Origin: Rotaria socialis
Taxonomy: Eukaryota
Length of the DNA stretch: 64,000 bases
Reading direction: 5' to 3'
Assembly (NCBI GenBank): GCA_905331295.1
Contig: CAJNYD010000012.1
Span: 186,001 to 250,000 of the forward strand
The notes beneath the pieces were generated by a model. It was given only the letters and a program-made list of their open reading frames with translations. It was not told where the DNA came from and made no database searches. Positions 8,753-49,280 of the stretch are shown here, piece after piece. The position numbers and the translations under genes were made by a program. Positions within the stretch are counted from its first letter, which is position 1. The number at the start of each line of letters is the position of its first letter.

Positions 8753-11286
8753 TTATGTCTTCGAAAGACTTTCTTGGGTATTTTCTAGTGCACTATTTGT
8801 TGTTGATATTAATGGTAAACTCGGCGAAGAACCTGTAATTGGTTGTCTTATATGATCGATATTTCGACGAATTTTCTTTTTACGTTCTATACATATATCA
8901 AACAGACGATAATATGGTGTAAGAACGCGCCAATTGGAAATAGTTTTATTATTAAATTCTCGAATGAATTGATCATCGACTTTAATTTGTTTGCTTTCAT
9001 TTTCTTGCATAATCGATGATATCCATTGATCATTTAGTTTATTTAAATATTTTTCTTCAAATTTTACAAATGAAGAAACATTTTCTTGAAAAATTTTCTC
9101 CTTATGATTTTTTATGTTTAATAATAATTCATCTAAATATTTCATTTGATTTAAATCACCTAATTGATCTTTAAGATTTTGCGCATAGACAATATATTCT
9201 TCGGCACGTTGAAAATCTTTTAATTCAAAATAAATTTTCCCTAAAAGAATATTTGCTTCAATACGAAAAAGTTCTTCATTGGATAGTGTTGCATAATCAA
9301 GACATTCATAGGCATATATTTTTGCTTGATCATAATTGGCTAGATTTAAATGCGAAAAACTTAAATATTGATTCACAAATGCACGTTCACTATCCGACGT
9401 TGCTTTGTCAAGCATTTCATGAAATGATTCAATTGCGTCGGAATATTTATTGGCTAATATTAAACTTCGAGCTATATCAAATGCAGCTCGATAGAGGCAA
9501 TTAGCATCTTTTAATGGTACTAGAATTTCATAGGCTTGTTTATAATTTTCAAAGCTTTGATCAAATAATTTTATTTCATTGTAAGATTGTCCTACAAGTC
9601 GAAATGATTCAGCAAGCATCAGACGAGTACGAGAGTCAAGTGTGTTGGAAATATTTTCAGAAGAATGAAGACAATTAATTATTTTCATTGCACGATAAAG
9701 AATCTAAAGAAGAAAAATTTTTAGTGTTCATTTATAGCATCAGCTAGATTATCGTATTCTCTTAGGATGAAAATTTTGCGACATCTAAAAAGTAGATTCG
9801 AGTAAAGAAAAGTCTCATGCTCCAAAAATCAAAATTATCTGACTTCCGATTGATTAGCTTATGACTATACTTTCCGAGTCTTTTAATCAATTAACTTGAT
9901 TGACACAATACCGAGATTCATAACAAAAACTTTAGAAAAAAAGAAAAATCGTTTTCACTTGAAATATTTTGAATAATGCAATATCTAGACCGCTAGGATC
10001 AAACTCGAGACCTTTAGTTATCCTAAATCGCTATGGTTTTGTCTGTTGTGTACGACCAATTCTGATCGGTAATCGGGGCTTGTTATTTTTGACATTTGTA
10101 ATCTGACAGAATAAACATGTAACATAGAGACGGACTATTTTTAGTAGATTTTTCGAAAGTAGCGCAGCAAAACTTTAGTTATCGCACTATCCTACTTAGA
10201 ACAACTAATTCATTTATATACCTCTGTACTCTTCTCTTTCGATGGTAGTTTTTGTAAATACATAAGTTCTTCTTCAGCCATTCGAACACGATTACTACGA
10301 TCTATTTCTGATGTGCATATCATGTTTTCTCGTTTAAGATTTCCGTCAACATGAAGACATTCAGCTTTATCAAGAAATTTAAGTTGAGATTCGATAATCG
10401 ATATAGCTTGATGTGCTTCAGCTTTTGCTTTATCAAATCCAGTAAAACCTTATCAAACAAAAACATTAATTTGTCAAAATTTAAACAAAAATAATTGAAT
10501 ACACCAACCGACAGACGGTTGTTTATCATTATAGAGATTAATTAATAATTTCCGATCTTTTGCTACTTCTATTAAAAGTCGATTTGCTTCTCGGTTTGTA
10601 TATTCTGTTAATGGTATTTCAATCGAAGGTAATGATTTTCGTATTGGCGGTCGATTGAGCAAGTTTGCGTTTTGTTCGATTTGTTTTTCTTGAACATTAA
10701 CTAAATTATTGCTTACTGTTAAATGTACATGTGGATTACATATAGTACATTCAAGAATTTCTGTTGTTTTTCGAATGCCTTCGATACATGTTTGTTGTGC
10801 TGGTTTAACTTTATTAGCACGATGAAAATACATTAACGCTATTCAAAAAGAAAGAAACGTTTGGCTCGATTAAAAGAAAATTTTATTAGTCAACCTAATT
10901 CGAATTCTCCATCAGCATAAAGAACTTCAGCTTTCTGTAAACAAACATAATAAAAAAGAAGATTTGAATTTTTTTCTGGCTCTCCAATTAGATTTAATGC
11001 CAAATCTATATTCTAAAAAAGGCATTAAACTACACACACAAATTTTTTCTCGTGTTTGATTACCCGTATCTTGTTGGGCTTTATTAATACTACCCATTTT
11101 AAGATAAACACGTGAACGATCAATATAAGTAGCTGTATCATCGGGATTCGATGATAAAACTTTACTATATTGATCAAGAGCACCATACAATTGTTGTCGT
11201 TTTTCATAAAAACGACCAACACTTGTCGTCATATTATTTGTTACGGATTTCGATGCACTTCGTGGACGAGCAGTTTCAACTTTCAT
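8753..11286 (-). CDS. TPR protein, ODAD4/TTC25-like (outer dynein arm docking); about 5 exons
   Basis: Spliced N-terminus YIDRSRVYLKMGSINKAQQD...LQKAEVLYADGEFELALMYFHRANKVKP...CIEGIRK and RLLIEVAKDRKLL match the TTC25 N-terminal pattern. The last exon (ORF 8753-9688) has TPR helices. Confidence 0.75.
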
Positions 11287-18659: not shown

Positions 18660-20521
18660 ATGTCCGCTATGATAGATCATCCGTCGGAGTATTTTCGAAT
18701 ATTTCTTATTATCTTATTTATAATCATTGTTCTTATCGGTTTAATTGGTAATGTTCTTGTTTTATTATCTGTCTTAACAAATCATATCAAAATTCGTCGA
18801 TCATCAACAAATCTTCTTCTTGTTAATATGTCATGTGCTGATTTGATTATTCTTTGTTTTAATATATTCGATATTATGCAGTTTTCCTATGATCGTTCGT
18901 GGCCAGCAGCCTGGTATCTTGGTTTACCATTATGTAAAATTATACGTTTTTCTCAAGTACTTGGTTGCTATGTTAGTGTGCAAACGTTGCTTATTATTAG
19001 CATTGACAGGTAAATCAAAATAAACAAAAAAAAAAAAGAACAGAGGGAATATGTACATCTTTTTTTCTATAGATATATTGCAATAATTCATGCAGTAAAA
19101 CTTTCACATTCTAATCGATGTAAACGTCTTTTATTAATCGTTATCATAATATGGTCGATAGGAATTATAATGGCATCACCTAATTTGTTCTTACTTGTAT
19201 TACATCCAATTCATGATCGTGCCGAATATTATGTTTGTGGCTTATCCGATGACAAAACATATTCATATTTTGTTCTATTTTATAAATATGCGGAATCAAT
19301 ACTTTTCTATTTTATACCCATATTTTTACAAGTAAGCTTTCTATAGAACAGTCAATACTAAATTTTAAGAAACATTCATCTCGAGCGAAAACTTGCTGGA
19401 AAAAGTCTAGGTGTCAATGAAATCGAATGTATATATTCGAGATTAAGAAAAACAGAATATAAAAGTACGTCTGAGAGGTTTTTATTTCATATTACAAATA
19501 CAAAGAAATACTAATAGAGAACTCGGTATAAAGGTTATGACACCAACATAGAATGTATTTAAGATTAAGGTGATTTGTGTCCTTTATAATTTCAACTTGA
19601 ATGTTTTCTGTTATCGAATTCTCTGCGAGTTAAAAAGTTCGTCTTATCGAGTACGAAGAAATCGTTCTTATGACTAGATAAGCTAATAAAACCAAATTAG
19701 ATTATTTCCATACTTGCTTGCAACGGTTAAGCAAGTGTTCTGTCAGATTTGGATGCTTATTTCTTAAAAACAAATTCTCCTTTTTCTTCCATGACAACAC
19801 GTACTTGGCCCACTTTGAATTCAATGCCATTTTTGGCAATAGGACGAGTTAGATATGGATTTGTAAGTTTAACTGACTATGTGATTAGTTGTATATCCAT
19901 TCTTCAGAGTGCCATACCGACGAAATAGAATTACCGCAGACCTAACATGGCTCAACATGTTCTTTTCTTCTATAGGCAATACTTTATTTACTTATTTGTC
20001 GTAAAATATTCTTGGTCGATCGTGCCGTACAAGAATATTGCCGTGCTGATCAAATACAATATTCCATAAGTAATTCTCATCGACAAATTTCAGGAACAAA
20101 AACATCATCATTGCAGCCGGCACATTTAACCGACAATAATATCAGTTTAGTCCCAATGATACCACCACGTTCACAATCTCAGCTAATGCCAGTATCGACT
20201 TCAATGCATAAAATGGGCGATCAAGCACGTAGACGAGCGATTATTATGTTGCTACTGGTTACTACACTTTATTTTATTGCATTTTCACCAGCACAAATCA
20301 ATTTTATCTATACGAAAATAAATCGTTTACATCATTTATATGAAAATCGTCTGTTTTTTATCATGTCAATATTATTAGTTTTATCATCGACAGCTTTTAA
20401 TCCAATATTATTTTATATATTTAGCAAATTTTTTCGACATAAATTTAACATTATTTTACGTAGTCTATTTCCAATATGTCGTGTACGATCACGAAGATCA
20501 AATGAGTTTCCAATGATTTGA
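18660..20521 (+). CDS. Class A (rhodopsin-like) GPCR, neuropeptide-receptor-like; 3 exons (~18660-19009, 19073-19331, 19977-20521)
   Basis: GLIGNVLV (TM1), TNLLLVNMSCADL (TM2), W.LG..LCK, SIDRY across intron 1, ASP (TM4), RRRAIIML...FSP (TM6), STAFNPILF...FR (TM7/H8). Confidence 0.93.
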
Positions 20522-21607: not shown

Positions 21608-21707
21608 NNNNNNNNNNNNNNNNNNNNNNNNNNNNNNNNNNNNNNNNNNNNNNNNNNNNNNNNNNNNNNNNNNNNNNNNNNNNNNNNNNNNNNNNNNNNN
21701 NNNNNNN
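21608..21707. other. Assembly gap (100 N)
   Basis: Run of N preceded by a G tract. 100 N usually marks a gap of unknown size, so distance across it is uncertain. Confidence 0.99.
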
Positions 21708-22718: not shown

Positions 22719-25700
22719 ATGGGCTTCATAAAAAAGCTTTACGAGAAATTTGTCGGCCGAGAAAATTTGAGTGCCCCGTGTACTCTTGTTAGCCATGTTT
22801 TCGATGAAGATGATGAAGCTGAATTGTTCTTTGACTTGGTTTTGGCACGTTTTGAAAATTTTGATCAACAAAATAACGCGGTAGGAAACAAATCGTTCTC
22901 CAGTGATGTTGATTTCATTATTCAATGTACTATGGCAAGTCTGTCATCAACCGAACTGTGTAAAAAATTTCAGAATCGTATCGACTCCTATTTATATATT
23001 TATCGTCGAATCGAAGAATATATCGGAATAGTGAAACAATCAGCTTATTGGATACGAGGCTGGGAAAACGATGTTAAACAATTGAAAGAGAAATTATTGC
23101 AATCATTGTCTCGAGTGTTTATTGAAAGTAAAGGTCTACAACCGAATCTTTGTTTAAAAGACGAACAACAATTACGAAAAATAAATATTGTTCAGTACTT
23201 AATAGCAATGACAGAAATTGGTGCAAAAACAATTGACACATTTTTTGTTTTGATTAAATTATCATTTCAATCATCTATTGTGATCGATAAACATGATCGG
23301 CTACAATGGAAAATTATTATATCAAATATAAAATATTTTAAAATTTCCATACAGGAATTTATTTCTAACTATATTACTTACGAATTGGCATTCCGCGAGT
23401 TTTCACTTGATTTGCCGGGCTTCATTGAACTCATTCGGAAAAATCATCCGTCCAAACATTCTGAAGAATCGCCGTTTCTAATATTCTTACGCCTTTCCAA
23501 AGATTTAAATATCAAAACTGAAGAATTTTTTGATCAATATCGAACATTGTTTGAACGTGGTATTAAGGAAAAGTTTTATTGCTTTTCACACATCGGTGAT
23601 TTATTCACTATCATCGGTCGTCACGATCGCGTCTTTGATGTTTATTTCACAATTTATGCTAACAGTGTGGATCTCGATGATCTATGGACAATGTTCATGT
23701 ATCTAAGCACAAAGAGTGAACTGAATGATATAATTCAAAAACACCTTATTTCCAAACTTAGTATTCGTACAGCAGGTGCACCAATTGATAGTTTTCTACG
23801 TTACACAAAATTTGCAACAGAATGCATGACGAAAAAAATCAAACATGAATATCATCCACGTTTTCTGAGGATATTTGAAAATATATTCGAAGGTTTCATC
23901 GGCCATCAGTTGACTGACGAACGATATTCTTATCGTTTTTCTGAGTCAAATTTAAAAGAATTCTTAAAGATCAGTCTTGAAATGTCAACAAGTCATGATC
24001 TACAGCAACCATCTTGTTTGCTCATCGTTCGACGCTTGATATTTCAAAATAGTACTCGGCAATTGAATACAGCTGATAAAACCAAAGGTTTGTTTGAAAA
24101 ACTAAATGATTTTGATCAAAGTTTATGTGAGAAGAACAATCCCGCTGCTATTATTCAAGACGAATGGTTGCAAGACTATCTTCTACTTATTCCTGAAGAT
24201 TTTTTGCGTTATTTCAACGAAAATGTGTACAATTATTTGTGCAATAATCATTTAAATAATCGTTGGACACTTTATATTTGGAGAAGACTAATATATTTGA
24301 GCATTCTCAAATCAAAAGCTGAGAACACGAATGAAATACTTTTGAAAATGAACGAATGGATGCACATTGTCAAGCATGACAACTACAATATCAATGATAC
24401 TTTGACAATCATTTTGATTATCAATCTATTTGAACTTGTTATTGTCAAATATATAAAATCTGTTTTGTCACTTCCGAAGATCGATATTATCATGAATTTT
24501 ATTGTAAATGCCCGACAAGAACAACTACATCAAATGGATACCAAACAAGTAGATGAATTTATTCAAGGCGCTGAAAAATCAATTCAACAGATCTTACTAC
24601 TACAAGGTAAATTCTATCTCAATTTATAGATACTTATACTTTTCCTGTGATAAATCGCATTTAAATCTAGAAGAGATAAAAATTCATTCTTTGACTAGGT
24701 ACTTCGCAATTGTATTCTTCGTCAAACACTTTCTGTTATAGGTCCTTGCGAAAAATATCGTGATCAATCAAATTCAACAATATTATATTGCTTTATGCAG
24801 TACATGGATTTTAAAACAATCATTACATCCATTGATCCAAACCAATATAAATTTCCTCGTCCTACAGAACAGATTGAATTAATTGTATCACCTATACCAG
24901 AAGATATTTATATCACAGACATTAATATCAAGGAACAATATTTTCAACTATTCATTCAACAAGCGAATGAGTGGCTTCGATGGTTTGATAAATTTCTCTT
25001 AGTATTTTTGCATGTTGTCGAATGGTTGAAGAATTGGAATGTCATTGGAGCTGCTCAATTATTTAATGATATGCGTACAGCGCAAAGTAATTCATCAATC
25101 ACAATGATTCAAATGAAAACAACAGTTGAGAAAGCATTAAAACTACTTCGACCTTTTAATGATCTACAACGACTATGCCATCTACTCAATTGTTTAACAT
25201 CTTTTCAATTAATTGACTCTGGTACACAAGGCAATCAAATTATTTCTGAAAATTATATTCGTGAATTAAAACGATTTCAACCTAACAACTCATTCAAGGT
25301 AGATTCCAAAATGATTGCTAAATGCATAATTCCTATCAATGGTCGTCAAAATGTTCAATGGTGTATTGCTAGTGAGAAACTTGCATGTAATATAGAAATA
25401 AACTATCAAACCACTGACTTGAATGATTCTTCTAAATTTTTATGTCGCAAGGAAAAGGTTTCAATCGATAAATATGTTCTACAAGGAGAATATGAGACAC
25501 AAAGAGCTGGCCAGTTAATGATTCTCGTCAATAATGAAACATTTCCAGCTCCACGTACTATATGGTATCGGGTAATACAAACACCGTTATCAACTTCTCA
25601 TCTATTCCATGGTATATTCAATATGTTTTATCAACAATACTCTAAACAATCAATAAAAACAATTAAGGAGAGTGAATTGAGTAATTTGCTCGATAGAGTA

Positions 25701-28700
25701 TTTACATTTATTGATAACCTCTTGCATGGTACTGTAAGTTTAAAAGATATGGCTGATCTTAAAGCCGTATTTTGTGATAAAAACATTCATGTAAAAGAAG
25801 AAGTAAAGAAGCTCTTTAGTAAACGTTCTTCTGAAGAAGGAACAAAAAGAAAACGATCCACGATTGTTATTCGAACAACGATCGATCCCACTGAAAAAGA
25901 AATTGAGCAAGTTTGTGAATGGCTACAGATCTATCAATATTATAGTCATGTTAATATTATCATAAATTGCATTGAAACATTTGATATACTACCAATCGAT
26001 AATGATGATGAGTTGATCGGTCGACTCAAACGCTTGCGTGATGAAAACTGTTCGCTGAAAGAAATTACGCAAACGTACGAAATTGTAAAACGGCAATTTC
26101 AAAATTTATCGAGTCAACATTTACAATTAATTAAAACAGCACTCGAGTGTTCAAATGCTGTTCTAATGATGAAAAAGTATGATTTATATTCACCTCATGG
26201 ACGTCGTCGATTTCAAGAATTACGAGATAATTTAACAACACAATTTCAATTTCAAGAACGTAATAATATGATTCTGAATTCATGGATTATCGCCTATGCA
26301 TTGTGTGAGCCGTTCGTCCTCAAGGCTAATAATTTCGATGAGTTTCTTAATCGCATTGCTGGCTTATCGAAATTTGAAGAAAACTCTCTCAATCACATTC
26401 AAAGTAAGATAGTTATACATTCAACTAAATGACTAGAATAATGAGCTACTTTTTAAACTAAAATCTGACCCAAGCGAAAGACACGCTTGCGTAAACGCCC
26501 GTTTCAGTTAATATTTTCTGACGCGTAAATAAAATAAATTTTGTTTCTGAGAATCTTTATTTTTCAATCTATTAGTTGTCAATGAGAATGTACAAATTGT
26601 TAATATGTGGCTATCAGCAGAAGAAACAACAGTGTTAGATAATGCTCTTTTAACAATGGAGCATTTGTACAAAACCGGTAAAGTTCAGATACGTCTTAGA
26701 CATTTAATGAATGAACAATCTTATTTTGAAATCATCTATTCTATTGATAAATTGGGAACTGAACAGGTGCGAAGAGCTGATTCACAGGATGATGGCTATG
26801 AACAATATAATGATGAAGAACATAATCAACAAAAGTCTAAAACACTAAAATTTACATTGACAATGAGTGACATCGATGATCATAAACGCCAATTAACATT
26901 CTGTAATGTTGATTTACAAGAAAATATGATTTATAGAAAAATATTATTACAAGAACAATTAAAATTATTGAAAATTGTCGAAAAAATTTATTCTATACTT
27001 GTAAAATTAGAAATGACAGGTCATCCAGATTTTCAACTCAGAGAAGAAGACTATGAAATACATGACCGAACTGGTAAGAAATTTTAACAAAGAAAATAAA
27101 TATCGTTTTTGTTTTTTAATTAATAATTAGGCGAAATCGATACGATTCTTACGGATCTAAGAAAAGATCATCGCTTACGAGCGGATCGATTGAAACGTGT
27201 CGTAAAAACTCGCACAGAGAATTTAGAATCAATCTATCGCGCTTTAGAAACTGCTTATGATATATGGATAACAAATTTGGAAAGATTTAGACAGGACAGT
27301 CGTTTATTAAATTTATTCTCAAATCGTCAAATAATGATCCTTATTATTTTATTAACAACATCGACAACGCAAAATCAAATCAAATGTCATTTTCTGGAGA
27401 AATTATCACTATCAAAAGATATCATCAATCATAAGGGCAAGGAACAAAATCTGACCATTCAGTGTTTGATGCATTACTTACGCTCACTGAAAATACGTGA
27501 TTGTGAATTATCTGAAGCTCATGTATCACGTCTGCATGAAACATACAAAATTGCGTCAAATTCTAATGTTGAAATGAGTCTAAAAAAATTGTCCGAATTT
27601 CTGCGAGATTTGTTGAAAAATGGAAGAGAACTATTCAGAAAAAATCCATCAATCAATGAAAATCAACAGTATCTTGTAACACCAAATGCAATGAAACATG
27701 CAACGGATAAAATACCACTCGAGCATGATCTTGATATGGAAACTTGTTGTGTTCTATTGAGTCTATTCAATGATCGACTACCATCTGTCTATCAAATATT
27801 ATGGTGTTCGATTGCTACAGAAGATGATATACACTTGTTCTTCTTACGAGTACGAACATTTCATTGCATGGTATTTGCTGTGATGGAGATCGATAAAATG
27901 CATCATCGTCTTCGAGAATTATTATTAAACGAACAGGATACATTGACGCGACAAGAACAACCTCATGGGACCGTCTATTATTTTTCAAGAGAATTAACAA
28001 CAAATCGGAGAGGCCTAAGACCGTTTCATATCTTACTCAAACATCGAGATCCGAATCAAATTTATACGCAAATAGTTCGATTATTTGGAGAACACAATTA
28101 CACACAACCACAGATTCAAATCATATATGGAAAAGCTGGAATAGGTGAGTTCCGCTTTAGATTTGCGCAGGATTAAGCAAAAGTAGTATAGAAGATGTTC
28201 AGATTAGAGTTAGAATGATGTTCGTTGTGCCATAATTTTATGTTTGACTATCGTTGGAAATTAGAAAAATATTTTGTAATAACGAAATCTGAAATGTTAC
28301 GATAGTCAGCTAGAAAGTCCATCAGAAAGGACAGAATTAGGATCTTAAGTCAGTACCAGAGATGTCCATCGTGGGCGAGACTCTGCCACGCCGCTGCCAC
28401 GTTGGTTATCGATAAAAATCTGTCACTGACGCTGAGATGGCGAGAACGCTATTGCGCTGCCATGAGCACCTCTGGTTTATAAGGCAAGGTATAGAGTGCG
28501 AAAATGTCTTACAGTACAGCAATGTAGTTTATTTCATTCACTTATTTCTCATATCATTTTTTTTCTATTAGGAAAAACTCATTGCATTAATACAAAATAT
28601 AAAGATCAAGATACATCGTGTTTTAGTATTAATGATACACTAAATTTATCATCGTTGATTAGCTCATTCCTATTGTTTGATTCAAGAGGTCGAAACGAAA

Positions 28701-31700
28701 ATCCATCGGTTTCTTTCAATATATCAATTCATGCACCATTTGAAGATCTAAATCGTACTTTCTTGTCGCTTTTTGTTTGTGGATCATTGACTGATGCGAG
28801 TACTGGTCTCACATTTTCTCTACCAGAAAACAAACAATGGAAATTTGTTATTGAAATTCCTCATACAGACAAATATCATATGACAATCAAAGAAAATTTC
28901 GATAAAATTTTACCTTTGTTATCAATTATATCACCATATACATTAGAAGAAGTCACAGACGAAAATTATCAATTATTTATTAACCGAGAAGAAGAACTTG
29001 TTGCACGATTCTTAAAAGCCTATGAAAATCAAACAATCGATCGTCTCATGACAATAAGTCCAACTGGCAAAGACCAACCTGTAAAATTCGAAAAATTGAC
29101 AAATCGCGATGAATGTCGTCAGCAAATATACAACTGTATGACAAAATATGCTCGCGAAATACCAAGAAATAAAATTTCAGAACTCTCTTTCACTAAATTT
29201 TTATATCGTCGTATTCGATTTTTTAAAGGTCATTATTATCGACTTAACATAACTTCTCAGCATCTCGGTTCAACTGTTATGAAACAAATGATTAACGAAG
29301 CTAAGTTTCTTGCTCATATTGATTTTCGACATAATAATTATCCTCGTATTTATCTTGTTTTCGATCCCTATTTTGCCTTACATCTATTACACGATGATTG
29401 GAATAATGTTTCAAAAGACTTGAAGCAACTCTTCAACAACAAAAATCCATCACTGACAGACGATTTTAAGAACAAAGATTATTTTGCTAAATGTTTATCT
29501 TGGCTCATCGATATAAAGTATGATGATTTCATAAGAATAATGAATGAAACAAAATTTATTTTGACCGAAAATTTTGCTTATAAACTTTTTCATGTTCACG
29601 AACGAAAATTAACTAGACTACCATTAATTATCGAAGGTGATACTGGTGTTGGTAAAACATTTCTTCTTAAATTCTATTCATTATTATTGAATTCGAATGT
29701 AATCAATGGTCCAATACATGCCAATATTGCTTCCATAGATGACCATGCTGTTTCAGATGATGAAAATAGTGATTCAACAGATGATAATGATGTTCCAACA
29801 CATGCCAACATCGCTCCACACATTTTAGAACGCACTAGTCTGTGGTTATTGACAACTATCATAAATAATATTTTAAAAAGTGAACCGAATTTATTGAATG
29901 AATTTCTAAAACGAGTAAAACCAAAATTAATGGGACTTGATGACGAGCAAGTGGATCAACCAGAAGTGCCAAACCTCTACCATCAGTTTGTGCCACAATT
30001 TCAAGATACTGATGATGATGATGATAAAAATTTATCGAATGATATTCTCATCCCTCATGAACTACAGCGGGTTGTTCCAACTCCGATGGCACCAGAAGTT
30101 CGGCCAGCAGTACAAGTGATTGATCTTCCACTATTAGAAAAAATAAAAAGTTCATTAGGAAAGTTTGAATACAACAATGATAGTCTACTATATATTTGGA
30201 AAACGATTATGATTATTTCGAGTGAAAATGCAATGAATACGACTCAACAACTTATCATTGCATTGCACAAGCATGTTACAAGTCAATTAACTAGTTATCC
30301 ATTAGCTGAAGCCAGTTTTCAACTTCAAACTTTACTTACCGATTCCCACTCTCCAACTGTACAAAAGTCGATCGAGATTTTTAATGAATATCTAATGCAC
30401 ACACAAACTAAGCCATTATTTTATCGTCTATTATTACATCCAGGCGTAACTGAAGAACAACTCGAAAATTTTATGTCACCCATTCGTCAGTTAGCCCGAG
30501 AACTATCTCATGTCGAATTCGTTGTTTTTTTCGACGAAGTTAATACGGCATCATGTCTTGGTCTGTTCAAAGAGATGTTCATGGATCGAACATTACACGG
30601 ACACAGTCTACCGGAAAATATCTTCTTCACGGCTGCTATTAATCCGTCTATTAAATTAAGTGACGATACTGTTGTTCATCGACAAAATTATCTGGTGCAT
30701 CAATTGCCACAAGCATTGGAAAACTTAAAAGTTTCTTATGGAGCCTTAGAGCCGGCATCATTAAAAGAGTATATTGACAAAAAAATCGCCAAATTTCGTA
30801 TTAATTCTTTAAATAATAGTCAGAAAGTGATGCCATTAGAAGAATATGCCCGAGAAATGCTTGCTGAATCTATTCTTAATGCACAGCATTTCTGTGAAAA
30901 ATATCTCGGTAAATTATTCATTTTGTATTTGAAAATATTCCTAGCAATTTTTATCTGTACTAGGACAAAATTCTGTGTCCCAACGTGAAATTCAAAGATG
31001 CTTTAATTTAATTGAATTCTTTTGGCATATGCGATTTGATGATGAGATCGAAAATGACGGTAACTTGTATCAACCAAATCCTATCCGATGTATTGCATTA
31101 TCATTGGCTTTGATTTATTATTTTCGACTACCAACAGAAGAAGATAATGCACAACGAAATGATAAACAAACGCCAACACGTGAACAACTTGCTAAATTAC
31201 TTTCTCAAACTATACCAGATTTTGTTGATGTCATTCAAAATGAATTGGATAGATTTGTAAATAGTGACAATTTTGTAATTCCACATGCTGTTGCTATCAA
31301 TCAGGCTGTAAGTATTGAATTATATACTATTTTCATACTACTAAAATCTTTCTACTTTGAAGGTTCGCGAACATATATTCGCTATTGTTGTTAGTATCGT
31401 TACTCGAACACCATTGTGTATAATCGGTGCGCCAGGTTAGTAAAACTGTTGTGTATCAGCTGTAACTATGACGCTAAATATATATTTCATTCAAGGTCAA
31501 TCAAAAACATTATCATTTCAAATTGTTTTACAAAATTTGCAAGGTTCACAATTATCGATAAAACCATTTTGTAAACGTTTACCAGCTATTGATCCATTCT
31601 TTTGTCTCGGCTCGAAATATAGTCGCTCTGAAGATATTGCTTATATATTTGAACGAGCTCTTAAACGTGAGCAACAATACGAACAAAATCGCATGGATAC

Positions 31701-34700
31701 ACGTTGTGTAAGTGCTTTGTTTTGCAATTGGAGTAAATTAATATCTTTAAATTGTTTTTTTTTTCTTCTTCGTAGGTTGTTTTCTTAGACGAAGCGTCAT
31801 TACCCGATGAAAAGAAAATGGTACTTAAAGTTTTACATCCCTATTTAGATGAATGTAAAGTTGCATTTGTGGCTATTGCAAATAAATCATTTGATGCTGC
31901 TAATGCAAATAGAATGATTTGTGTTTATCGTTCATTGCCATCTAGAGATGATCAAAATATTTTAGCTTATGGTTGTCTTGGTCTAAAAATGAAAACTAGT
32001 GGCCAACAAGCAGTAGACAATCGTCTTGAAGCAATAATCAATGGTCTTTGTCAAGGATATCGTCGTATATTAGATACGCCGAGTGTTCCTCACATTTATC
32101 ATGATCGTGATTTTATTTATATGCTGCGAGAATTAAGATTCGAATTAACAACAACAACAACAGATGATCAAGAGACACGCGTCACTGGAATAACGCCACT
32201 AAGTCTTCTACGAGCATTAGAAGATAATTTCAATGGAGTTAAAAGAGATGAATTTGAAAAATTAGTTGAAATATTTTTTCAAGCTGTTCAAGAGCAATGT
32301 CCTGACTTTCGACTACCACCAAATCGTCGTAATGTACCGACTATTCTACGTGAATCAATGAAACTTGATTCACAACATCGCCGTCTTTATGGTCGTTATA
32401 AATTAATCATTGATGAATCCGAAGATGAAAGTGCTGTTCGTTTAATATCGCAAAATGGAATAGTAGATCTGGATCCTAATCGAACAACTGTTTTTCGAAT
32501 GTCAGATTTTGCCGATGATATTCATAATGAACTACGTAATGTTGAAATATTATCAACAATAAAATTATGTATGGAAACAGGTAAAACAATATTGATGGTC
32601 AATACAGGACGAATTCATGGTTCCCTGTATGATGTTTTTAATCAAAATTTTTCAATAATGGCTACTGGAGATATGAGAAAGATCTTTTCAAAAGTCGCCA
32701 TAGGTCCTAAAACAATTGATGTTGTTGTTCATGAAGATTTTCAATGTATTGTACATGTCAAACGAAGTGAATTCGCGACGATTCCAGCACCATTTCTAAG
32801 TCGTTTTCAAAAATATTCCTTGAGTGTCAACGATTTCTATCGAATTCAATTCGAACAACTTTCGATTAATGAACAGACAATTATGAAAAATGTAGAAGAA
32901 AAATTACAGATATTCATTCAACATTTTGGACGACAATATTTTTATGGATTAAATGAGAATACATTATACTCTTGTTTATTATCACTTATTAAAAAAAAAG
33001 AAAATGATCAAAGTTATTTTCTTAATACTTACCAACATTATTCACAATTAACCATTAGATCAAAACATTTTATTGAACAAAATCCAAGTGATATTCAATT
33101 GTGTGTGTTACGTTCGGTAATATCAAAATTGATTCAACTTGTTTCACCCGAATCAATTATTTTGAAATTACCAACTTTTGAAGATAAAATGGCACGATGG
33201 TTATGCACAAATTATTTTCATCAACAAGAGCATTTTCATATTGAGAATTTTATTCAACAATTAATATCAAATCCATCTCTGGGCCTTCAAAATGACGATT
33301 TATTAACCACAATGAATACAAATGTAAATACATTAAATGATATTGGTATTATAAGAAAAGTAATGATATTTACACGAACATCATCTTATATCGTTGGTCT
33401 CAATGAACAATCGAACTATGAACTATTTGGTGGTTTAGATGATAATGAATATTGTGACAAAATTGAAAATATTGATATACTAAATTTGGTCAGTTTTTCC
33501 TATAGACTGGCCAGGTTCACCATGAAAACACTAGTTTTCCCTTCGTGTGCACAATCCCTGTGGGACTAAAACAAGGGGAAAGCGGCGGACTTGAAGTAGA
33601 AAAGTAGTTGTGCAACTTTTATGTAACTTCAAGTAAATTTGAAGTCGAAAAATTCTTCGAAGTTTACCGCTGGAAGTAGCTCAAAGTTACTTCAAGTCCA
33701 AAAGCTCGGCGTTTCCCCTTTGGGTTAAAATATAAAACTGCTTTTCTGGAACCCGTCTACCACAGTCAGTGAGTCTTTGCACATTTTCTATTACGATCTG
33801 TGGTGACCTATGGAGCTTCTCTGACATGATCTGTGGGGCTCAAATGTCTACTCTATATACTTTAACACTCCTTTTAGTTTGTGTCTCACAAAAGATACGA
33901 CTACCAGTTGTCGAGTTAAGTCATATCAATAGTCTCCCCCCCACCCCACACACACCCTTCCACTCTTACTCTAATACATCTATAACAAATATATATCATT
34001 TAGGCTGTCATCGAAAATTCGATGGAACTCGAAGAAAAATTTCAAGTCTTTGAAAAACATGAAACGAAAAATGTTTTAATCGTTATTATCAATGCACGAA
34101 TCATTCAACAACGTTTACACATTCCATACGTACGACAATTAATTGATAAAACAGAATATTCGTGTAATGCACTCGATAGAAAACAAGATAAATATTTTCT
34201 TATGCTGGTACATTCGCCACCACAAGAACAATATCATCAGTCATCTTTTCCCTCCATTTTCTTGCACAGTTGGGACTTTTATTTCTTCGATAGTTGTGCA
34301 CCAGGTAGTGCATTTCATCTCCAAAAGATGTTACAAATTGTATCATCCTCTTTCGATCAACAACAAGAATCATTCGATAATGCTTTATGTGATTTAAATA
34401 TATTATTCGATGATTGCTTGTGGGACTTTTGTTCACGAATTCAAATAGGTTTACAAGAGTTACCACAAGATATGTTTAAGAATAGATTCGCTTTTGAATT
34501 CTACAAATCGCAAACAAGTACATTACGACGTGTACAATGTTTAAAACAGATTCTTCAACAATCACGACAATTACAAAATCACATTGTAACCATTTATCAT
34601 GATCATTCATCGAATAAAAAAGAATCCTCAAAAAAGATTTACAATTCAATTTATCAAATTTCTAAAGATATTGTTTGTGGCAAACGATTCGATGGTCTAG

Positions 34701-37700
34701 TCGAATCTATTCAATCGGAAACTCGGATGTCATTTACAAACTTTGTTTCAAATGTATTTAAATTTATCGTTAACGATTATGGTTTGGAAACTTTATCAAC
34801 ATTATCAAATATGCTAAATGGATATGGTTCAATGTTAGAATTAATCGACTATTCATCGTTTGCAATAGATGAGAATCAAGATAAACTTTCTCCAATACAA
34901 CAAGGAATATTTCAACTCATTACACATTATACTTGTATTCCACAAACACCACTCTATTATTTATTTCATCAACGAATCAAGACCTGTGCTGAAAATATCA
35001 ATTTAAAGCAAATTCTCAAACAAACCAAGCAAAAAGGTTCGCATGAATTTGTATCTTATAAGAATTCTCCGAAGTATTAAGGCAGGACATTTGTATAGAT
35101 TGCTCAAAGTCACATTCCTACTTAAAATTTCATAGAAATATTTCCTCTCTTCTATTTAGGGAAAGATGATGTTCCACGCCAACATTATTATTCCGTTCCA
35201 CCAATTACCACAGCTGATAACAATTGTGATGATGGCGATGATGAAAACGAACAAACTGAATATACATTCGAACAATTTCGATATGAATTAATGAAATCAA
35301 TTTTAAATGATAAAATTTTAACTGATATCATTAATGAAAACATTCTTAATTCTTATTCAAATGATCTTGTTCGAACATTTTGCACCATTGTCGAGAAAAA
35401 TTTCGATGATAATTTTATCCTATGCCAAAAAACAGTCGAATTTGTTTCACGTTGGTTATTACTCGTCGATGATAATGATCAACAATCTCTATCAGAGTGT
35501 TCAAATAGACATATTTGGCTTCTCGCTCATGCTTATACATCATTTGAATATGATCAAAATGATCTTTTTTCTCTATATTCAGCTTGTCGAATTATGGATA
35601 GACTCGATTCAACCCAATCATTTTATGATCGTCTATTGCACGATAATCATATAACAACACGTTCCGAAGTACGTGAAACATTATTTCGATTTATGTTTGA
35701 TTATCTATGGAAAAATCTTTGTGAATTTTGTTCAAAAAATAATACAAACGATGAATGGATTCATATTTATACATTTATTTCGAAATATTATCCATCAGAT
35801 AAAGTTTTACAACGTATACAACTTATTGAAATCAAAGAACAAATTGAATTTATGAATTTAGCATATCTTATTCTAATCAATGATACAACACCTGAACCGA
35901 AAAATCTTATATCTCGTCTATTGAATGATATACATCTTGTTCATATCAATAATAATAATAATATATTTAGAAATCAAAGCAAATCTGTCTATCTGAAATT
36001 ATTGGTCACTATTATTGATTATATTCAATCATATTTAGAAAATAGAAATGCTCAAAATTCAACATTAATGATCGATTTACAACAATGGATAGTTTCCATG
36101 TTAAAATCATCTACAGAATCATGTAAAGAAGAAATTGGAAATCTTTTTATAGGCTTAAATAAATCAAGTTATCGTTTATCATTACCTATGAAACAACTTT
36201 TATTCGATAAATTAGCTAATTTATATTTAGAATCTGTACGACAAAATAGACCAACAACCGATGCTTGGGATCGTCTTATAACACTTTTACCATTGGTTAT
36301 CGAATGTCTAGAAGATGAAAATGTTTTCAATGGATACCAATTGCCTTATCATCCATCGATTATAACTGATGATAATAATCAACGACAACCATTAATCGAT
36401 TTATTCTTTTTCTATCTTCAACGATATTTTCACGATGAAACAATTAAATGTAGTTTTGTTAATAAAATCATACGACCAAACTTACCAAATACAAAATTTA
36501 AATATCCAAAATTAGCGACAGAAATTTTCAAGAAATTAAAAGATTATTTTCTAGTACGATTAACTGCTTTACTTCTATGTCAAACAGATGTATCTCCTGA
36601 TGATCAGCGAATAATCAGTCGAATTACAACGGCAATTATTACTGAATATTTGTTGATTGATCGAACAGCGATTCAACTTACTCAGCATCTTCAAATATTT
36701 CTCTCAACTATTATATCAAAACGATCGTGGAGTTATCTCTTCATTTTATTAAAGTCGGATCATATACAATGTTTGAATAGTCAATGGGCAAATACTCTTT
36801 GTAGTCTATTAGAAATGACAAAGACAACAGAAAATAACAAATATATTCAATTATGTCATAAAATACAGTTCACGTTATCGTCAAATAATGCATCCTCTAT
36901 ATTTCCTAAATTGCATCAAGCATATGAACAGTTGAAAGACATTGTACGTGAATGTGTCACGGAAAATGTCGTTGAAGGACGATGGAAGAAGCTATCGGAT
37001 TGGGTTCAATTACAACAAAACATGAATCCTCCTGTCCTGGATTTGAAAGAAATCAAAATCATGTTATTATTAAATATTTATTATGATTATTATTGCAGTA
37101 ACCAGTTGGAGTCTCTTAATACGCTCATAGTATTCATTGAAAGCACATTGGAACCATTACCAGAAGAATTACAAGTATTTCGTGTTATGTTGCAACCTGA
37201 ACAATTTATGATTGGATACCCGAGAAGAAATGGGAATGTAGAAAATAATTTTCTAAACAGTTTATTTAAAGTTGATTGTCAAGATGAAGACGAATTATGT
37301 ATTCGCCATTCGCTTGTGAATCTCATTGCTATGATTCTAATGGGTGGAAAACAAAGTTTCCTTTGGACATCTACATTCAATCCTTTGAAACTACAGAATA
37401 CATTTGGTAAGTATTCATTTGATGAAATTTTTCTATTGACTGCGGTGTTGACTCTTGCAGTCGACAAATTCTTTCGAAACAAGAAAATAATTTTGAGATC
37501 CAACCAACTCTACACATGTCGATAATCAAAGAAAATAATTTTATTTATTTTCTACATTAGGGTTTGGATCAACAGCACATCAAATCATTCAAAGTAACGG
37601 TGTACATTATGATTGTGGTTGTATTATCACACAAAACGGAGATTTAATGCAATTCGAACGAGCACATGCGAGTGCACTCAATGTGCCAGCTGTTTATGTT

Positions 37701-40700
37701 GCATATTTTTCAACATTTGGTGCTTTAGTAAGTTATTTGTTCATCATAAGCGTATCATCGTTTTCTTAATATTATCATATAGGCTTGGCATTTATTATTA
37801 TTTAGTGAATCTGTTCAAAATCTTCATGGTCCTATATTAGCACGACATGCTATTGCTGATAACACCGCTGAAGGTCGTCTTGCAGGCAATAACGATCGAA
37901 CGAAAGTGTGTCATTTTATTCGTGCTCGATTATTGTCGACGTTCAGTTTCTTGTCAGTACGTTCGAATCAAGATGATGCATGCATTCTTTTGAATCGTTG
38001 CTTTGAACAAATGGCTCTGTTAACTATTAACCATCAACAAGCAGAAAATTCTTGGATTAAACCCGTTTTTAACACGTTAAACGATGAATTGAAAGCTGAA
38101 GAAGAATATCAAAATCATGTATTCTATTTTGTACATGGAAAATTAGCAGAATATAAAGCATACATTAATCATTTGAATTTACAATCACAAATACAAACAA
38201 ATTTACAAAATTTTATTACACAAATGCCAATTACCATTCAATTTCTACATTTTAAAACTGAATTGCACAATCCTATTCATTCTGCGCTACCACTTAAAAT
38301 CTTACGACATGTTCTTGATTCTATGGATTTTCTTAAGATTACTAGATGGATCTATGATCTTAGTCAATTCTATATTCTTCTACATCAAACATACACTCAA
38401 TTAATTGAACAAAATGAATTTCATACAATAACGTTAGAAGAATTGTATAATCGAGGTGAAAAACATTTCAACCAACCAAATAATTTCGAATATTATCATA
38501 GAAACAATAATTATTCATCAATTATTGATAAAGGAATTCAAAGTGTCAATGCCTATCACAGCTTTACTGATGGTCTCATTCGACCGGGTGCTTGTGATCA
38601 AATGCAACGTTTCACCATAATTACACGGGACACACCCATACACTATCTAGTTACAACAGCAAATTATGATGAAGGAGATATTGTTATGCGCATACTCAGG
38701 TATTTCTACTTAGAATCTATTCATTCTATATGACACAATTGTAATTCCATGGGCCATGATAACGAAAAAATCGGATCCCTTTACATACTGTACTTTTTCA
38801 CTTGACTATAATCGTATCTAATAAGCAGTATCACTCCTTGACTAGCTGATTTAAAATATGAGTTGCCCAAAGCATTCAACAAGAAAGATCAATATCTTTA
38901 ATTCACAGTAGACAATATTCTATGACAGAAATCTGTACATCGTTGCTCTACATATATCAACTTTTAGTGATGCGAGCTATCCTTTTTTTGATCCTACCTG
39001 AGATAAACTATTGTTTTTTCCATGATTAAGCTCGAACTCTAGTATCGACTACGGTCTTTTTTACCTCGTATGAAAATCGATCTCTCAATTCTTGTTCTTC
39101 TTTTGATTTCGTAGCTGAAAAGAAAAGTCAATGAACTTCAAGAAAAAGATCATGTATTTCCTAGACTTTTATTAGACTTCGTTTTATGTTGCGTATTTTA
39201 GTGTTCTAATCGACTATCACAATAGTCTATTGAATTCGCTCGAAAAAGAAACGAATGAAAATGACAACAATATGTTTGGTACGTTAAAAAGTTTAGCTAA
39301 TAAATTAACTTCAAAAGAAGTTTCAATTCTTCAAATTATACATGATAATACTGGCGTAATTACATTGACCGACAATGATTGCCTATGGATCGAACAGTTG
39401 TCTTGTGCTACTCTTATCAATGACAACGATGAATACTTTCAAAAAGCTGATACACAAATTAATTTTAATTTTGTCTATCTTCAATCGTATATTATTCGAA
39501 CATATCTTTTATTATGTCGTATTAATTATCGGCATATCATTCAAAATTATCGATGTCATATTAAACGAACACAAATCAGCACCGATGGCGAACTATTAGA
39601 TCTTGACGAAAAGTATTCGATTCAAATGAATCGTGAACAATTAGAAACCGATTGGAATCATTTGAAAGAAATATATTTAGATAAATTATATCATGGTCAT
39701 AATCTACTACGACAAATAGCTATTTTATTGAAAAATAATCAAGACGATTTGTCTCAAGTAAATCTTTATGAATTTATCCAATCATTAGGAGACGATAATC
39801 AGTTGTTCAAACAAACAAAACAATATGAAATTAAAGATTTTCAATTATGTTATATTGATCATGTTCGACAATTATATGCTAATTCAATTAGTGGTTTTCA
39901 ACATTTATTTACTGATATATCTCAATTGCTTCGAACTTCAATTGATTATCAACTTGATGAAGAACTCAGTCAAAACTTAACAGCAACAATAATTAGCATT
40001 GATGATAATAAAGATATTGAGAAAATAAAATCAACAATACAAACAATAACTGATCTATTAACGGATTTGAGATCAGTTGAACATTTTCTACTGCGTCAAT
40101 CGAACCATTCATTAACAAACACGTGTGAAATTTTAGAGATTCAAAATTCTATTCTTGATTTAATACCACATGAAATAAAATGTGAAAATTATGTTGCTGT
40201 TAGCATTCATTTGATTCGCATGCGAACAATTCTTCAAGAAAGAATTGTCAATATCGAAGAGAAGCAAAGTAAACAATGGAATGAAAACTTTGACGTTCAA
40301 TCCAATGACCAACAGCCGGAACAAGAAAATTGTTTTCTTAATTTTCTCAATGAACCATCAACATCGGATACAACACCGAAAAATAACACTGGATCAGATG
40401 ATGATTATGATGATATATGGAGAGGAATTCCGAGTAGTATACCTAATGAACTGATAAAAGATAATTTACTTGGCAAACAAGATTTTCCTCAACAACGTCG
40501 AAATTCAACTATTCAACAAACAACAATCGAAGAATATTTAGAATATTCATCTCTATTTGAATTAAATCTTAAATTTGTTCCGTTAACATTATCAACTTTA
40601 TTCGATCAAATTCATAAACAATTTGAGCAAGCTCAAACCCAAACTGTGGCCTTGAACAAAGCACAAAAATTCGTTGTCACATATACAGACGGAAAGTCAC

Positions 40701-42647
40701 GCGGATCTTTGTGGAGGACTGAAAATTTATTTGAAAAACTCCGTAATTTGTTCGAGAAAGAGAAATTCGATATGAATACATATACTGTTATTGATAAAAA
40801 TGAAATTTGTGTCGATTTCACGAATATAAATGCTCGATTACCGCATGAAATATCTCTCGAATATTTTATTATTGAAAAAACTCTGTTATTTTCAATTCAA
40901 TTTAATTATCAGAAAAAATTATTCGACTATTCCGCTACGTCTAAAAGTAATATATCTACAATAATCGATCGTTTTATCCATGATAATGACATCAAACTCT
41001 TATCAAACAATAACTACCTCTGTTTCTTCGATGAGCATGGGAAAACTATCGAAAATGGAACCATCGCTGATCTAATTAATCAATCAGATCATCCTGACAA
41101 GAAAAAAATTTCGATAACAGTCAACGAAGAAGATAATAAAACGAGCATGCTGTGCGAAATCACTATACGATCGAAACAAAGTAATAAGTTTTTTTTAATC
41201 TTGAACTATACTAATATTCATTGATTTAGATAATGAACAAATCAGTTTATTTGATCCAAACACGCAATGGAAACAGATTGATCAATGGTTGAAACATTTC
41301 AATCAATTCATCGATGCTCCTATAAACGACTATGCTTATCTTCATAAAGAGCTAAAAACAATCATCGATGAAAATCAGTCGATTAGTTTTATCATTGGTG
41401 AACCAACAAAATCAATAATCATCGATGGAGTTAATCGAGGTGCGACAACTCAAGTGACATTCTCCTATGAAACCAATTGTGTATCATTACGTGTACTAAA
41501 GTCGATGAGAATTTGTTATATATTAAATAATGAACGTCTTCTAAGAGAATTGTGTCTTATTGATATATCTCCAAATGATTGTGTTCTTGTATTAGGAGAA
41601 GTCAACGAAAAAGTTTTATCACAGAATGATATTCAACAGCCTATTAGTAATTATTTCCTTAGTGAAGATCAACCAATTCATTTTCGAATATCAATCGCTG
41701 TTCAAATATTGAAATATGATGATGAACAGCCTATACAAATTCTTCTGTCAAATAGAAGTGCAACTATGGAACATGTCTTTCAATTGGCAAAGGCTTCAAT
41801 TGATATCTACAAATATTTAGCTTCGAATTATACAAAGAAGATCGTCGATTTTAGTGAAAAACTATCAAATTTGAGGGATACAAAATTTATTCTTGTCAAA
41901 GAACATGAAACATGTCTCGTAGCAATTGAAAAATCAAAAATAAGTCAATTAATTGATGTCGACGATGAGGCCAACGAATCTTATTATCAACGATTTACTA
42001 TATTTGCTACGATCGGCGATATTTATAGAGAAAATAAAATAGATATCGATCATCAACATCTTCTATGTTCTGAAGATTTTGTTCCATCGATACAAACCAA
42101 GGTACTTTCATTTTCATCCGTCTCACCAATTCGATTTACGTTGATTGATGGAAATTTACCAGTAACAGTAGTTGTTCTAAATAATGAAAATCAAAAATCA
42201 ATCACTTTTAATTGCTCAATGACGATCACGGTGAAGCGTTTGTCATTCATTGCTTGTCAATTGTTCGGTCTTAACAGCAATTATTATCGATTGAAACAAT
42301 CAGATTATGATCTCGATGATGATACTGTTTCTTTAGAAGATATTGATTCCACGATGACTCAAATCGAATTACAGTTAATTTCAATAGCATCCATCAACAG
42401 TTCGATCAAATATGGCAATCAAACAATTGTCTTGCCCTGTTCTTGTGATACATCAACAGCAACAATCATTGATGAAACATTGCAGAAGCTGTATCTTCCA
42501 CAAGAAAGTCATCATATGTATGAATTAACTGCATTGGTTGACGATGGGATCCCTATAGAAGAGGTTATGTCTATTGAGGATATCTATGCATTATTTCCTT
42601 CTCGTCCGACAATGATACCGTTCGAATTAACAAAAAAAATTGACTAG
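22719..42647 (+). CDS. Giant RNF213/mysterin-like multi-AAA+ ATPase, ~5,833 aa, 15 exons
   Basis: Exons read by eye: 22719-24606, 24742-26403, 26576-27073, 27131-28144, 28572-30908, 30964-31307, 31363-31435, 31496-31707, 31776-33488, 34004-35036, 35160-37406, 37561-37727, 37783-38699, 39202-41180, 41230-42647. All introns are GT-AG and in frame; total 17,502 nt. RNF213-type motifs appear in order: RLPSVYQILWC, IYGKAGIGKT, PLIIEGDTGVGKT...VVFFDEVNT...FTAAINP...YLVHQLP...VSQREIQRC, PLCIIGAPGQSKTLS...VVFLDEASL...LKVLHPYLD...VAFVAIANKSFDAANANR, RDFIYML, IKLCMETGKTILMVN...SLYDVFNQNF...VHEDFQCIV...PFLSRFQK. An upstream exon is possible (acceptor-like site at 22687). Confidence 0.92.
28356..28475. 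mobile_element. Short GC-rich MITE-like element in intron 4 of the RNF213-like gene
   Basis: Ends ccagagatgtccat ... atgagcacctctgg are imperfect inverted repeats; no clear TSD. Confidence 0.5.
33502..33760. mobile_element. Fold-back MITE-like element in intron 9 of the RNF213-like gene
   Basis: Internal inverted pairs aaggggaaa/tttcccctt and ggacttgaagta/tacttcaagtcc; loosely inverted ends tagactgg...ccgtcta. Confidence 0.55.
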
Positions 42648-42717
42648 AAATAAATTCGTTTTCTAATTCATTTAATAAGAACTTTCATTTCAACGTTCAC
42701 TTTTATTTTAAACATGA

Positions 42718-43020
42718 CCCAGGAGAATCAGGGTACGTCGGAATCGGTTCCGTTGAATCCCGATGATTTCCTAACTTACGAATTCCGGTCCAAATTTCGT
42801 TGGGACCATTTCCGATCAATTCCCATCGGTTCCATCGATTTCCGACGAATGCCGGGTCAAAATTTTGCGGAACTTAACGGAATTTTTCTGGCGGAAATTG
42901 GACCAGAATCCGTTAGTAGGAAATCGTTGGAATTTAACGGAGCTGTCCGAAAAGCAACGGAATCCATAGGATCCGATGCCGGAAACGATCGGATCCACTG
43001 ATCGGATTGAATCTCCTGGG
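42718..43020. mobile_element. ~300 bp MITE with CCCAGG...CCTGGG ends, 70 bp after the RNF213-like stop codon
   Basis: TIR cccaggagaatca / tgaatctcctggg (1 mismatch in 13). GC-rich interior built of ttccg/cggaa motifs. Confidence 0.75.
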
Positions 43021-49009: not shown

Positions 49010-49280
49010 NNNNNNNNNNNNNNNNNNNNNNNNNNNNNNNNNNNNNNNNNNNNNNNNNNNNNNNNNNNNNNNNNNNNNNNNNNNNNNNNNNNNNNNNNNN
49101 NNNNNNNNNNNNNNNNNNNNNNNNNNNNNNNNNNNNNNNNNNNNNNNNNNNNNNNNNNNNNNNNNNNNNNNNNNNNNNNNNNNNNNNNNNNNNNNNNNNN
49201 NNNNNNNNNNNNNNNNNNNNNNNNNNNNNNNNNNNNNNNNNNNNNNNNNNNNNNNNNNNNNNNNNNNNNNNNNNNNNNNN
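49010..49280. other. Assembly gap (271 N)
   Basis: Run of N flanked by C-rich and G-rich tracts. Confidence 0.99.

Follow-up and report, generated by a model that had tools for sequence, protein, structure and literature searches.

An eight-unit array of predicted ubiquitin-fold domains behind an RNF213-like protein without RING or intact RZ finger in the bdelloid rotifer Rotaria socialis

The window analysed was a stretch of 64,000 nucleotides (nt) of Rotaria socialis DNA (GenBank assembly GCA_905331295.1, contig CAJNYD010000012.1, positions 186,001 to 250,000 of the forward strand); all coordinates refer to this window. Its central feature is a gene on the + strand (22719-42647) encoding an RNF213-like protein that ends in eight predicted ubiquitin-like (UBL) domains. 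Open reading frames (ORFs) are long across 22.6 to 42.6 kb of the window, and splicing of 15 exons with GT..AG introns resulted in a stop-free protein of 5833 amino acids (aa). Exons 1-8 were placed at 22719-24606, 24742-26403, 26576-27073, 27131-28144, 28572-30908, 30964-31307, 31363-31435 and 31496-31707, and exons 9-15 at 31776-33488, 34004-35036, 35160-37406, 37561-37727, 37783-38699, 39202-41180 and 41230-42647. The protein is colinear over its full length with annotated bdelloid proteins of 5.6-5.8 thousand aa; the closest named match, a protein of Rotaria magnacalcarata, is 92-97% identical across the first 4480 aa.

An earlier note, made from the sequence alone, had described the tail as UBL domains fused to a putative E3 ligase and had considered that exon 15 might belong to a separate transcript. 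A contig of a probable RNA run joins position 41180 to 41230 (exon 14/15; depth 2.7, the shorter flank being 38 letters long) and skips the GT..AG intron at 41181-41229, and a second contig skips 37728-37782 in agreement with the intron of the model; the runs behind these contigs were only guessed to be RNA, none being recorded as such, and stretches that they leave uncovered were taken as no evidence. Exon 15 was therefore retained in the same transcript. The exon 13/14 junction had no contig coverage in the probable RNA runs, and several database gene models start at exon 14. Exon 14 itself carries the C-terminal domain (CTD), the linker and units 1-2 in a single reading frame, and independent annotations from Rotaria, Adineta and Didymodactylos join the body with the tail. 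Body and all eight units are joined in 20 of the 28 long rotifer models, including the chromosome-scale gene of Adineta vaga. A single contig of low depth shows one A too many in an A-run of exon 14 (position 41101), probably an error.

RNF213 (mysterin), the principal gene of moyamoya disease, encodes an E3 ligase that acts broadly against pathogens; its activity depends on an RZ finger and on the CTD with which the protein ends. In the window protein, a dynein-like AAA+ core was located at 29507..33047 (+) by phmmer, orthologue alignment and motif positions. Both AAA3 and AAA4 have intact Walker A/B motifs (aa 2043, 2338, 2603 and 2677), and exon 9 matched RNF213 structures with an E-value of 7e-20 (phmmer). 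A further intact Walker A motif (aa 1683-1690; 28122-28145 joined to 28572-28580) lies upstream of AAA3 and is kept in all eight rotifer relatives that reach this site; judged by its motif, it may represent a third nucleotide site.

The region homologous to the RNF213 E3 core and CTD (about aa 4203-5060; 36992..40273, +, start approximate) was assigned by HHalign. A profile of 54 RZ-less proteins aligned colinearly with a profile of nine RZ-bearing RNF213 proteins (probability 99.8, E-value 1e-29, 730 columns), and the alignment reached the C-termini of RNF213. The score of 259 compares with 20 for the reversed profile and at most 20.7 for 15 shuffles. Sequence-to-PDB profile searches of exon 14 and of the E3 half gave no match, and an Atlas search with the E3 core of an orthologue returned only matches below 0.9, to unrelated helical repeats. 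The Pfam scan covered ten ORFs of the window (exons 3, 6, 7 and 8 left out), 17 homologues and further proteins, and its beta-grasp matches all fell below threshold; exon 1 had no CBM20 match. According to PMC12075652, the CTD of RNF213 is its E2-binding site. On the basis of the profile alignment, the E3 core and the E2-binding CTD are present and colinear in the window protein, and linker and array begin right behind the sequence aligned to the RNF213 C-terminus.

The label of a putative E3 given in the earlier note is not established, because there is no RING and, where the RZ finger would be, only a HYDC loop is left that offers no aligned counterpart of the catalytic cysteine. A RING pattern was found in none of 12 proteins (the window protein and 11 long rotifer relatives), nor was there a Pfam RING match, and the window protein has a single CxxC over its full length. 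An intact RZ pattern was likewise missing from the window protein and all 11 relatives, and exon 12 had no Pfam RZ match. The RZ finger of RNF213 is described in PMC11549300 as four zinc ligands plus catalytic Cys/His residues. In its place the window protein has a short loop with the motif HYDCG (Cys4359; 37605..37619, +), which by conservation and profile alignment is likely an RZ remnant. The profile alignment gaps the N-terminal RZ half, in which the catalytic cysteine and zinc pair one lie (C4505, H4509 and C4516 of RNF213), and places HYDC on the CxxC of the second zinc pair. Orthology of Cys4359 with the catalytic cysteine, suggested by the look-alike NG-H-Y-DCG, was set aside on account of this placement. 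The distance from the AAA4 Walker A motif to the cysteine is 1756 aa in the window protein versus 1615-1895 aa in eight RZ-bearing proteins.

HYDCGC was found in 28/28 long rotifer proteins. Among 51 aligned family rows, which include sponges, Naegleria, Paratrimastix and a dictyostelid, the loop cysteine is kept in 39 and the aspartate in 47. Cys4359 may be a remnant zinc ligand or a new nucleophile, the loop alignment being uncertain; if the window protein transfers ubiquitin, this conserved residue would be the best candidate nucleophile. Cysteine-rich motifs resembling Rcat, the catalytic RING2 of RBR ligases, were detected by a rough pattern in 3 of 98 long relatives. Proteins P0092, P0116 and P0126 carry RING2-like motifs, seen as pattern matches only, in the E3 region, and P0092 also has HYDCG.

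About 770 additional residues follow the CTD. They begin with a poorly conserved linker (aa 5060-5187; 40274..40657, +), in which 21 D/E versus 8 K/R residues in 128 aa bear out the acidic character noted earlier. The array proper comprises aa 5188-5833 (646 aa; 40658-42644) and was divided into eight units of 70-85 aa each by alignment of 49 tails. The expected extent of about 640 aa and all peptides quoted for it were recovered in the gene model; the proposed unit size of 80-95 aa was too large, and the count, given as six to eight, is eight. On the + strand, the units were placed at 40658..40879 (unit 1), 40880..41134 (unit 2), 41144..41438 (unit 3), 41442..41693 (unit 4), 41694..41903 (unit 5), 41907..42149 (unit 6), 42153..42389 (unit 7) and 42393..42644 (unit 8, the protein end, without Gly-Gly). 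A single GT..AG intron of 49 nt (41181-41229), whose splicing was seen, interrupts the array within unit 3. Unit 6 has an acidic insertion of low confidence in its first hairpin.

Confident AlphaFold models were obtained for exon 15, which holds units 4-8 and part of unit 3 (pLDDT 84.7, pTM 0.74), and for the first three units of an orthologue with 71% identity (pLDDT 86.1, pTM 0.79). Every unit was predicted as strand-strand-helix-strand-(strand)-short helix-strand, in keeping with the beta-beta-alpha-beta spacing read from the letters. In Foldseek searches of the two models, linear tetra-ubiquitin ranked first (E-values 4e-16 and 5e-8), followed by the UBL arrays of USP7 (3e-12 to 1e-10), di-ubiquitin, OASL, ISG15 and FAT10. 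Unit 7 is the most ubiquitin-like; it superposes on FAT10 (Z 12.4, root-mean-square deviation (rmsd) 1.7 Å, 77 residues aligned) and on ubiquitin (Z 11.9, rmsd 1.4 Å, 72 aligned), and its best PDB profile match is ISG15 (E-value 0.44). Unit 8 superposes on the FERM domain of IDOL (Z 11.8, rmsd 1.7 Å, 78 aligned) and, in the orthologue model, unit 2 on SUMO (3v61; Z 10.0, rmsd 2.0 Å, 74 aligned) and unit 3 on the RA domain of PLC-epsilon (2c5l; Z 8.5, rmsd 2.8 Å, 84 aligned). Units 1, 4, 5 and 6 were covered by secondary structure (unit 1 in the orthologue model) and by multi-domain Foldseek alignments only, unit 5 lying within the tetra-ubiquitin alignment (model 155-471).

At the level of families, RA, RBD, TUG-UBL and ubiquitin Pfam models gave at best 17-18 bits, below their cut-offs, in the window, the 17 homologues and relative P0159. 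Two relatives from Adineta steineri are labelled 'Ubiquitin-like domain-containing protein' in UniRef, so that one array domain is already recognised by automatic annotation. All eight units are predicted from the models to be beta-grasp (ubiquitin-fold) domains, and the proposed fusion of diverged beta-grasp domains to an RNF213-like protein was upheld by AlphaFold, Foldseek and HHalign. Adjacent units are predicted to pack tightly, with strands continuing from one unit into the next (pTM 0.74-0.79).

Among 190 proteins with any unit match, 57 bdelloid sequences contain units 1-8 all in order and none has more than eight; most of the others are fragments. The array spans 609-664 aa. A given unit is 45-54% identical to its counterparts in other proteins; of the 28 possible unit pairs within the array, four score higher than any of 140 shuffles, and a BLAST self-comparison of the array gave no self-match. 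Units that are conserved across proteins yet barely alike mutually are therefore considered old and specialised, and recent tandem duplication was rejected on the same self-comparisons. A terminal Gly-Gly was found in none of 100 sequences ending in unit 8, as the earlier note had stated for the window, and Gly-Gly at any position in one of 49 tails. In columns which we take to correspond to Ile44 and Val70 of ubiquitin, with the register set by eye, 67% of 78 sequences have I/L/V/M/F as the Ile44-equivalent of unit 8. The patch varies nevertheless: in unit 7 the position is hydrophobic in 43% and a lysine in the window protein, and the Val70-equivalent of unit 8 is hydrophobic in 17%. Bdelloids carry many paralogues, which fell into 27 clusters. 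In seven models from two Rotaria species (P0012, P0013, P0047, P0049, P0050, P0016 and P0060), unit 3 or units 3-5 are missing from the intron position on, which may be an exon-level loss or a shared mis-prediction. In the relative P0159, about nine repeats of the final helical portion of the CTD precede an intact eight-unit array.

A tree computed with FastTree from 706 columns of the AAA core in 80 sequences (10 of 29 rotifer rows, rooted on animal RNF213) grouped the rotifer proteins with proteins of sponges and further eukaryotes (support 0.993), and all 11 RZ-annotated proteins fell outside this group. Horizontal transfer is not claimed, as the sister of the rotifer clade was left unresolved (support 0.13). 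Long tails, often behind an acidic linker, occur in 18 of 29 non-rotifer members of the clade, including Oscarella pearsei, O. lobularis and Sycon ciliatum. A hidden Markov model (HMM) from these 18 tails gave 10-21 bits for 40 of the 49 rotifer tails, versus at most 5.9 bits for reversed tails. Profile-profile comparison of rotifer and non-rotifer tails gave a probability of 20-35% and a score of 40-44, versus 16-18 for reversed tails, and sub-threshold beta-grasp Pfam matches were present in three of six non-rotifer tail pieces (best E-value 0.0013). In the other direction, rotifer unit HMMs matched none of the 71 long relatives from outside the rotifers at E<1e-3, deeper unit HMMs reached at most 11.4 bits versus 7.7 for controls, and an HMM of the whole rotifer tail at most 4.3 bits. 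From this weak evidence at the level of profiles, the long tails of the sponge relatives are likely to be similar arrays. RZ-less relatives without an array also exist, and a scan of metagenome contigs found no relative. Distant relatives carry SAM and USP families (precomputed assignments), read as C-terminal from the tail sequences; the RZ-less RNF213-like proteins P0120, P0123, P0137, P0139 and P0132 end in SAM, USP-type or extra AAA domains. Judged by these domain assignments, the C-terminal slot of RNF213-like proteins is variable.

Compared with RNF213, the window protein has the same AAA core with AAA3/AAA4 Walker motifs, a colinear E3 core and CTD, and similar size and spacing. It differs in the missing RING, the HYDC loop in place of the RZ finger, the residues beyond the CTD, and its position in a clade separate from RZ-bearing proteins. 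The array resembles the C-terminus of USP7 (HAUSP), likewise a protein of the ubiquitin system with tandem, diverged beta-grasp domains lacking Gly-Gly (Foldseek E-value 3e-12), whereas it has eight units instead of five, about 10% identity and another geometry, and its host is AAA+/E3-like and not a protease. With linear polyubiquitin, ISG15, FAT10 and OASL, which gave the best structural matches, it shares the head-to-tail arrangement of beta-grasp units; unlike them, its units lack Gly-Gly or an LRGG-type linker, are mutually unlike and do not exceed 23% identity. Single units also match adaptor domains such as RA/RBD, FERM F0/F1, PB1 and UBX (Z 8-12, sub-threshold Pfam matches), but no family cut-off is reached, and the likeness is one of fold.

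Of the functions proposed in the earlier note (ubiquitin mimic, decoy or adaptor), that of an adaptor fits best. By analogy with USP7, the array would be a non-cleavable docking arm behind the CTD of an RNF213-like AAA+ giant, a reading to which we give about an even chance. It is favoured because of the fixed order of the units, their unit-specific conservation, the tight predicted packing and the missing Gly-Gly. According to PMC4457826, USP7 uses its five UBL domains to bind partners of both viral and cellular origin. Like these domains, the array would bind partners or targets and tune the enzyme, each unit having its own partner or structural role; with the flexible acidic linker, the arm might extend to the surface of a target or to the E2-docking CTD, and the protein would be gated by its ATPase ring, like RNF213. 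Several points weigh against such an arm. A shared fold alone shows no function, and the matches to USP7 have an rmsd of 17-30 Å, so that the overall geometry differs. Units 1, 4, 5 and 6 have no single-domain structural row, the lists being filled by units 2, 7 and 8. The 57 complete arrays include near-identical, redundant alleles, and an internal unit is missing in 12 of the 190 protein models; some units may therefore be dispensable or mis-predicted. The tail is also the least conserved folded region: mean identities among 18 relatives, some without certain regions, were 72% for the AAA core, 52-68% for the E3 core, 55% for the CTD, 52% for the N-terminal part, 43% for the tail and 35% for the linker, and the tail was below the N-terminal part in all ten proteins having both. 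This low conservation also fits an arms race.

It is unlikely that the array is instead a built-in polyubiquitin mimic. In this reading, ligase chemistry has been lost, and a target coated with the protein and its pre-built, chain-like tag would attract p97, the proteasome or autophagy receptors although no ubiquitin is transferred. The lack of a counterpart to the catalytic half of the RZ finger, the clustering of long tails in one well-supported RZ-less clade (0.993), the tetra-ubiquitin rows at the top of the Foldseek lists, the close superposition of units 7 and 8 on ubiquitin-type domains (rmsd 1.4-2 Å) and the mostly hydrophobic Ile44-equivalent of unit 8 agree with it. However, polyubiquitin would rank first for any tandem beta-grasp array, the rmsd to it is 14-18 Å, identity with ubiquitin-family chains is at most 23%, the E2-docking CTD and a cysteine are conserved, and RZ-less relatives without an array exist. 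An integrated decoy or sensor, whose units bait pathogen enzymes directed at ubiquitin or UBL proteins and whose contact switches the ATPase/E3 on, appears no more probable than the mimic. The faster divergence of the tail than of the remaining protein and the many bdelloid paralogues would suit it, as would the positive selection on RNF213 in simians reported in PMC11549300, but unit number and order are fixed and not accordion-like, and a deubiquitinase would find no Gly-Gly to recognise. Both the mimic and the decoy are weakened by the missing Gly-Gly, the variable Ile44 patch and the fixed unit number.

The Ubl domain of parkin folds back and blocks the enzyme. By analogy, one or several units could bend back onto the E3 core or CTD and keep the E2 from docking until ATP or a target releases them; the flexible linker that ties the array directly to the end of the CTD-homologous region would allow this, but one domain would suffice and eight distinct conserved units would be left unexplained, and such a cis regulator is rated rather improbable. 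That the tail is an artefact, i.e., a separate gene or not of the beta-grasp fold, is very improbable: the uncovered exon 13/14 junction, the models starting at exon 14 and the guessed nature of the RNA runs are outweighed by the single frame of exon 14, the observed 14/15 splice and the 20 of 28 models with body and array joined.

Beside the docking arm, a broader reading is doubtful but has some probability. In it, an ancient sister clade of RNF213 (bdelloid rotifers, calcareous and homoscleromorph sponges and other eukaryotes) would have lost the RZ ligase chemistry and would carry the eight-unit UBL chain as the 'eat-me' signal with which an ATP-driven immune coat protein marks targets, or would be a ligase whose new active site, a single cysteine, is served by the arm. 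With ATPase ring, E3 core and CTD retained but no intact RZ finger or RING, the lineage offers a natural experiment on an RNF213 scaffold lacking the known catalytic site, with Cys4359 singled out as one testable cysteine. The findings also indicate that eukaryotes can exchange the modules at both the RZ and the C-terminal position, and draw attention to a candidate immune gene family that is expanded in bdelloids. Literature searches combining RNF213 with rotifers, bdelloids, sponges, Dictyostelium or UBL domains, and searches for bdelloid immune ligases, found no description. The UBL array and the RNF213-like body are of known kinds; what appears undescribed is their combination in one protein, together with the RZ remnant and the clade.

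Further features were recorded outside the gene. Runs of N (assembly gaps) at 21608-21707, 49010-49280 and 54689 all lie outside the RNF213-like gene. Behind its stop codon, a GC-richer element (about 42717-43000) is present as a single copy in the window and is matched by diverged contigs in two runs; it is probably a dispersed repeat or a small transposon. A TPR-repeat ORF was found at 8753-9703 on the - strand (TPR_12, E-value 2e-8). Just upstream of the RNF213-like gene, a spliced gene for a rhodopsin-family G-protein-coupled receptor was located at 18.7-20.5 kb (+; ORF 19976-20521), its 7tm_1 match having an E-value of 1e-4, below the cut-off.

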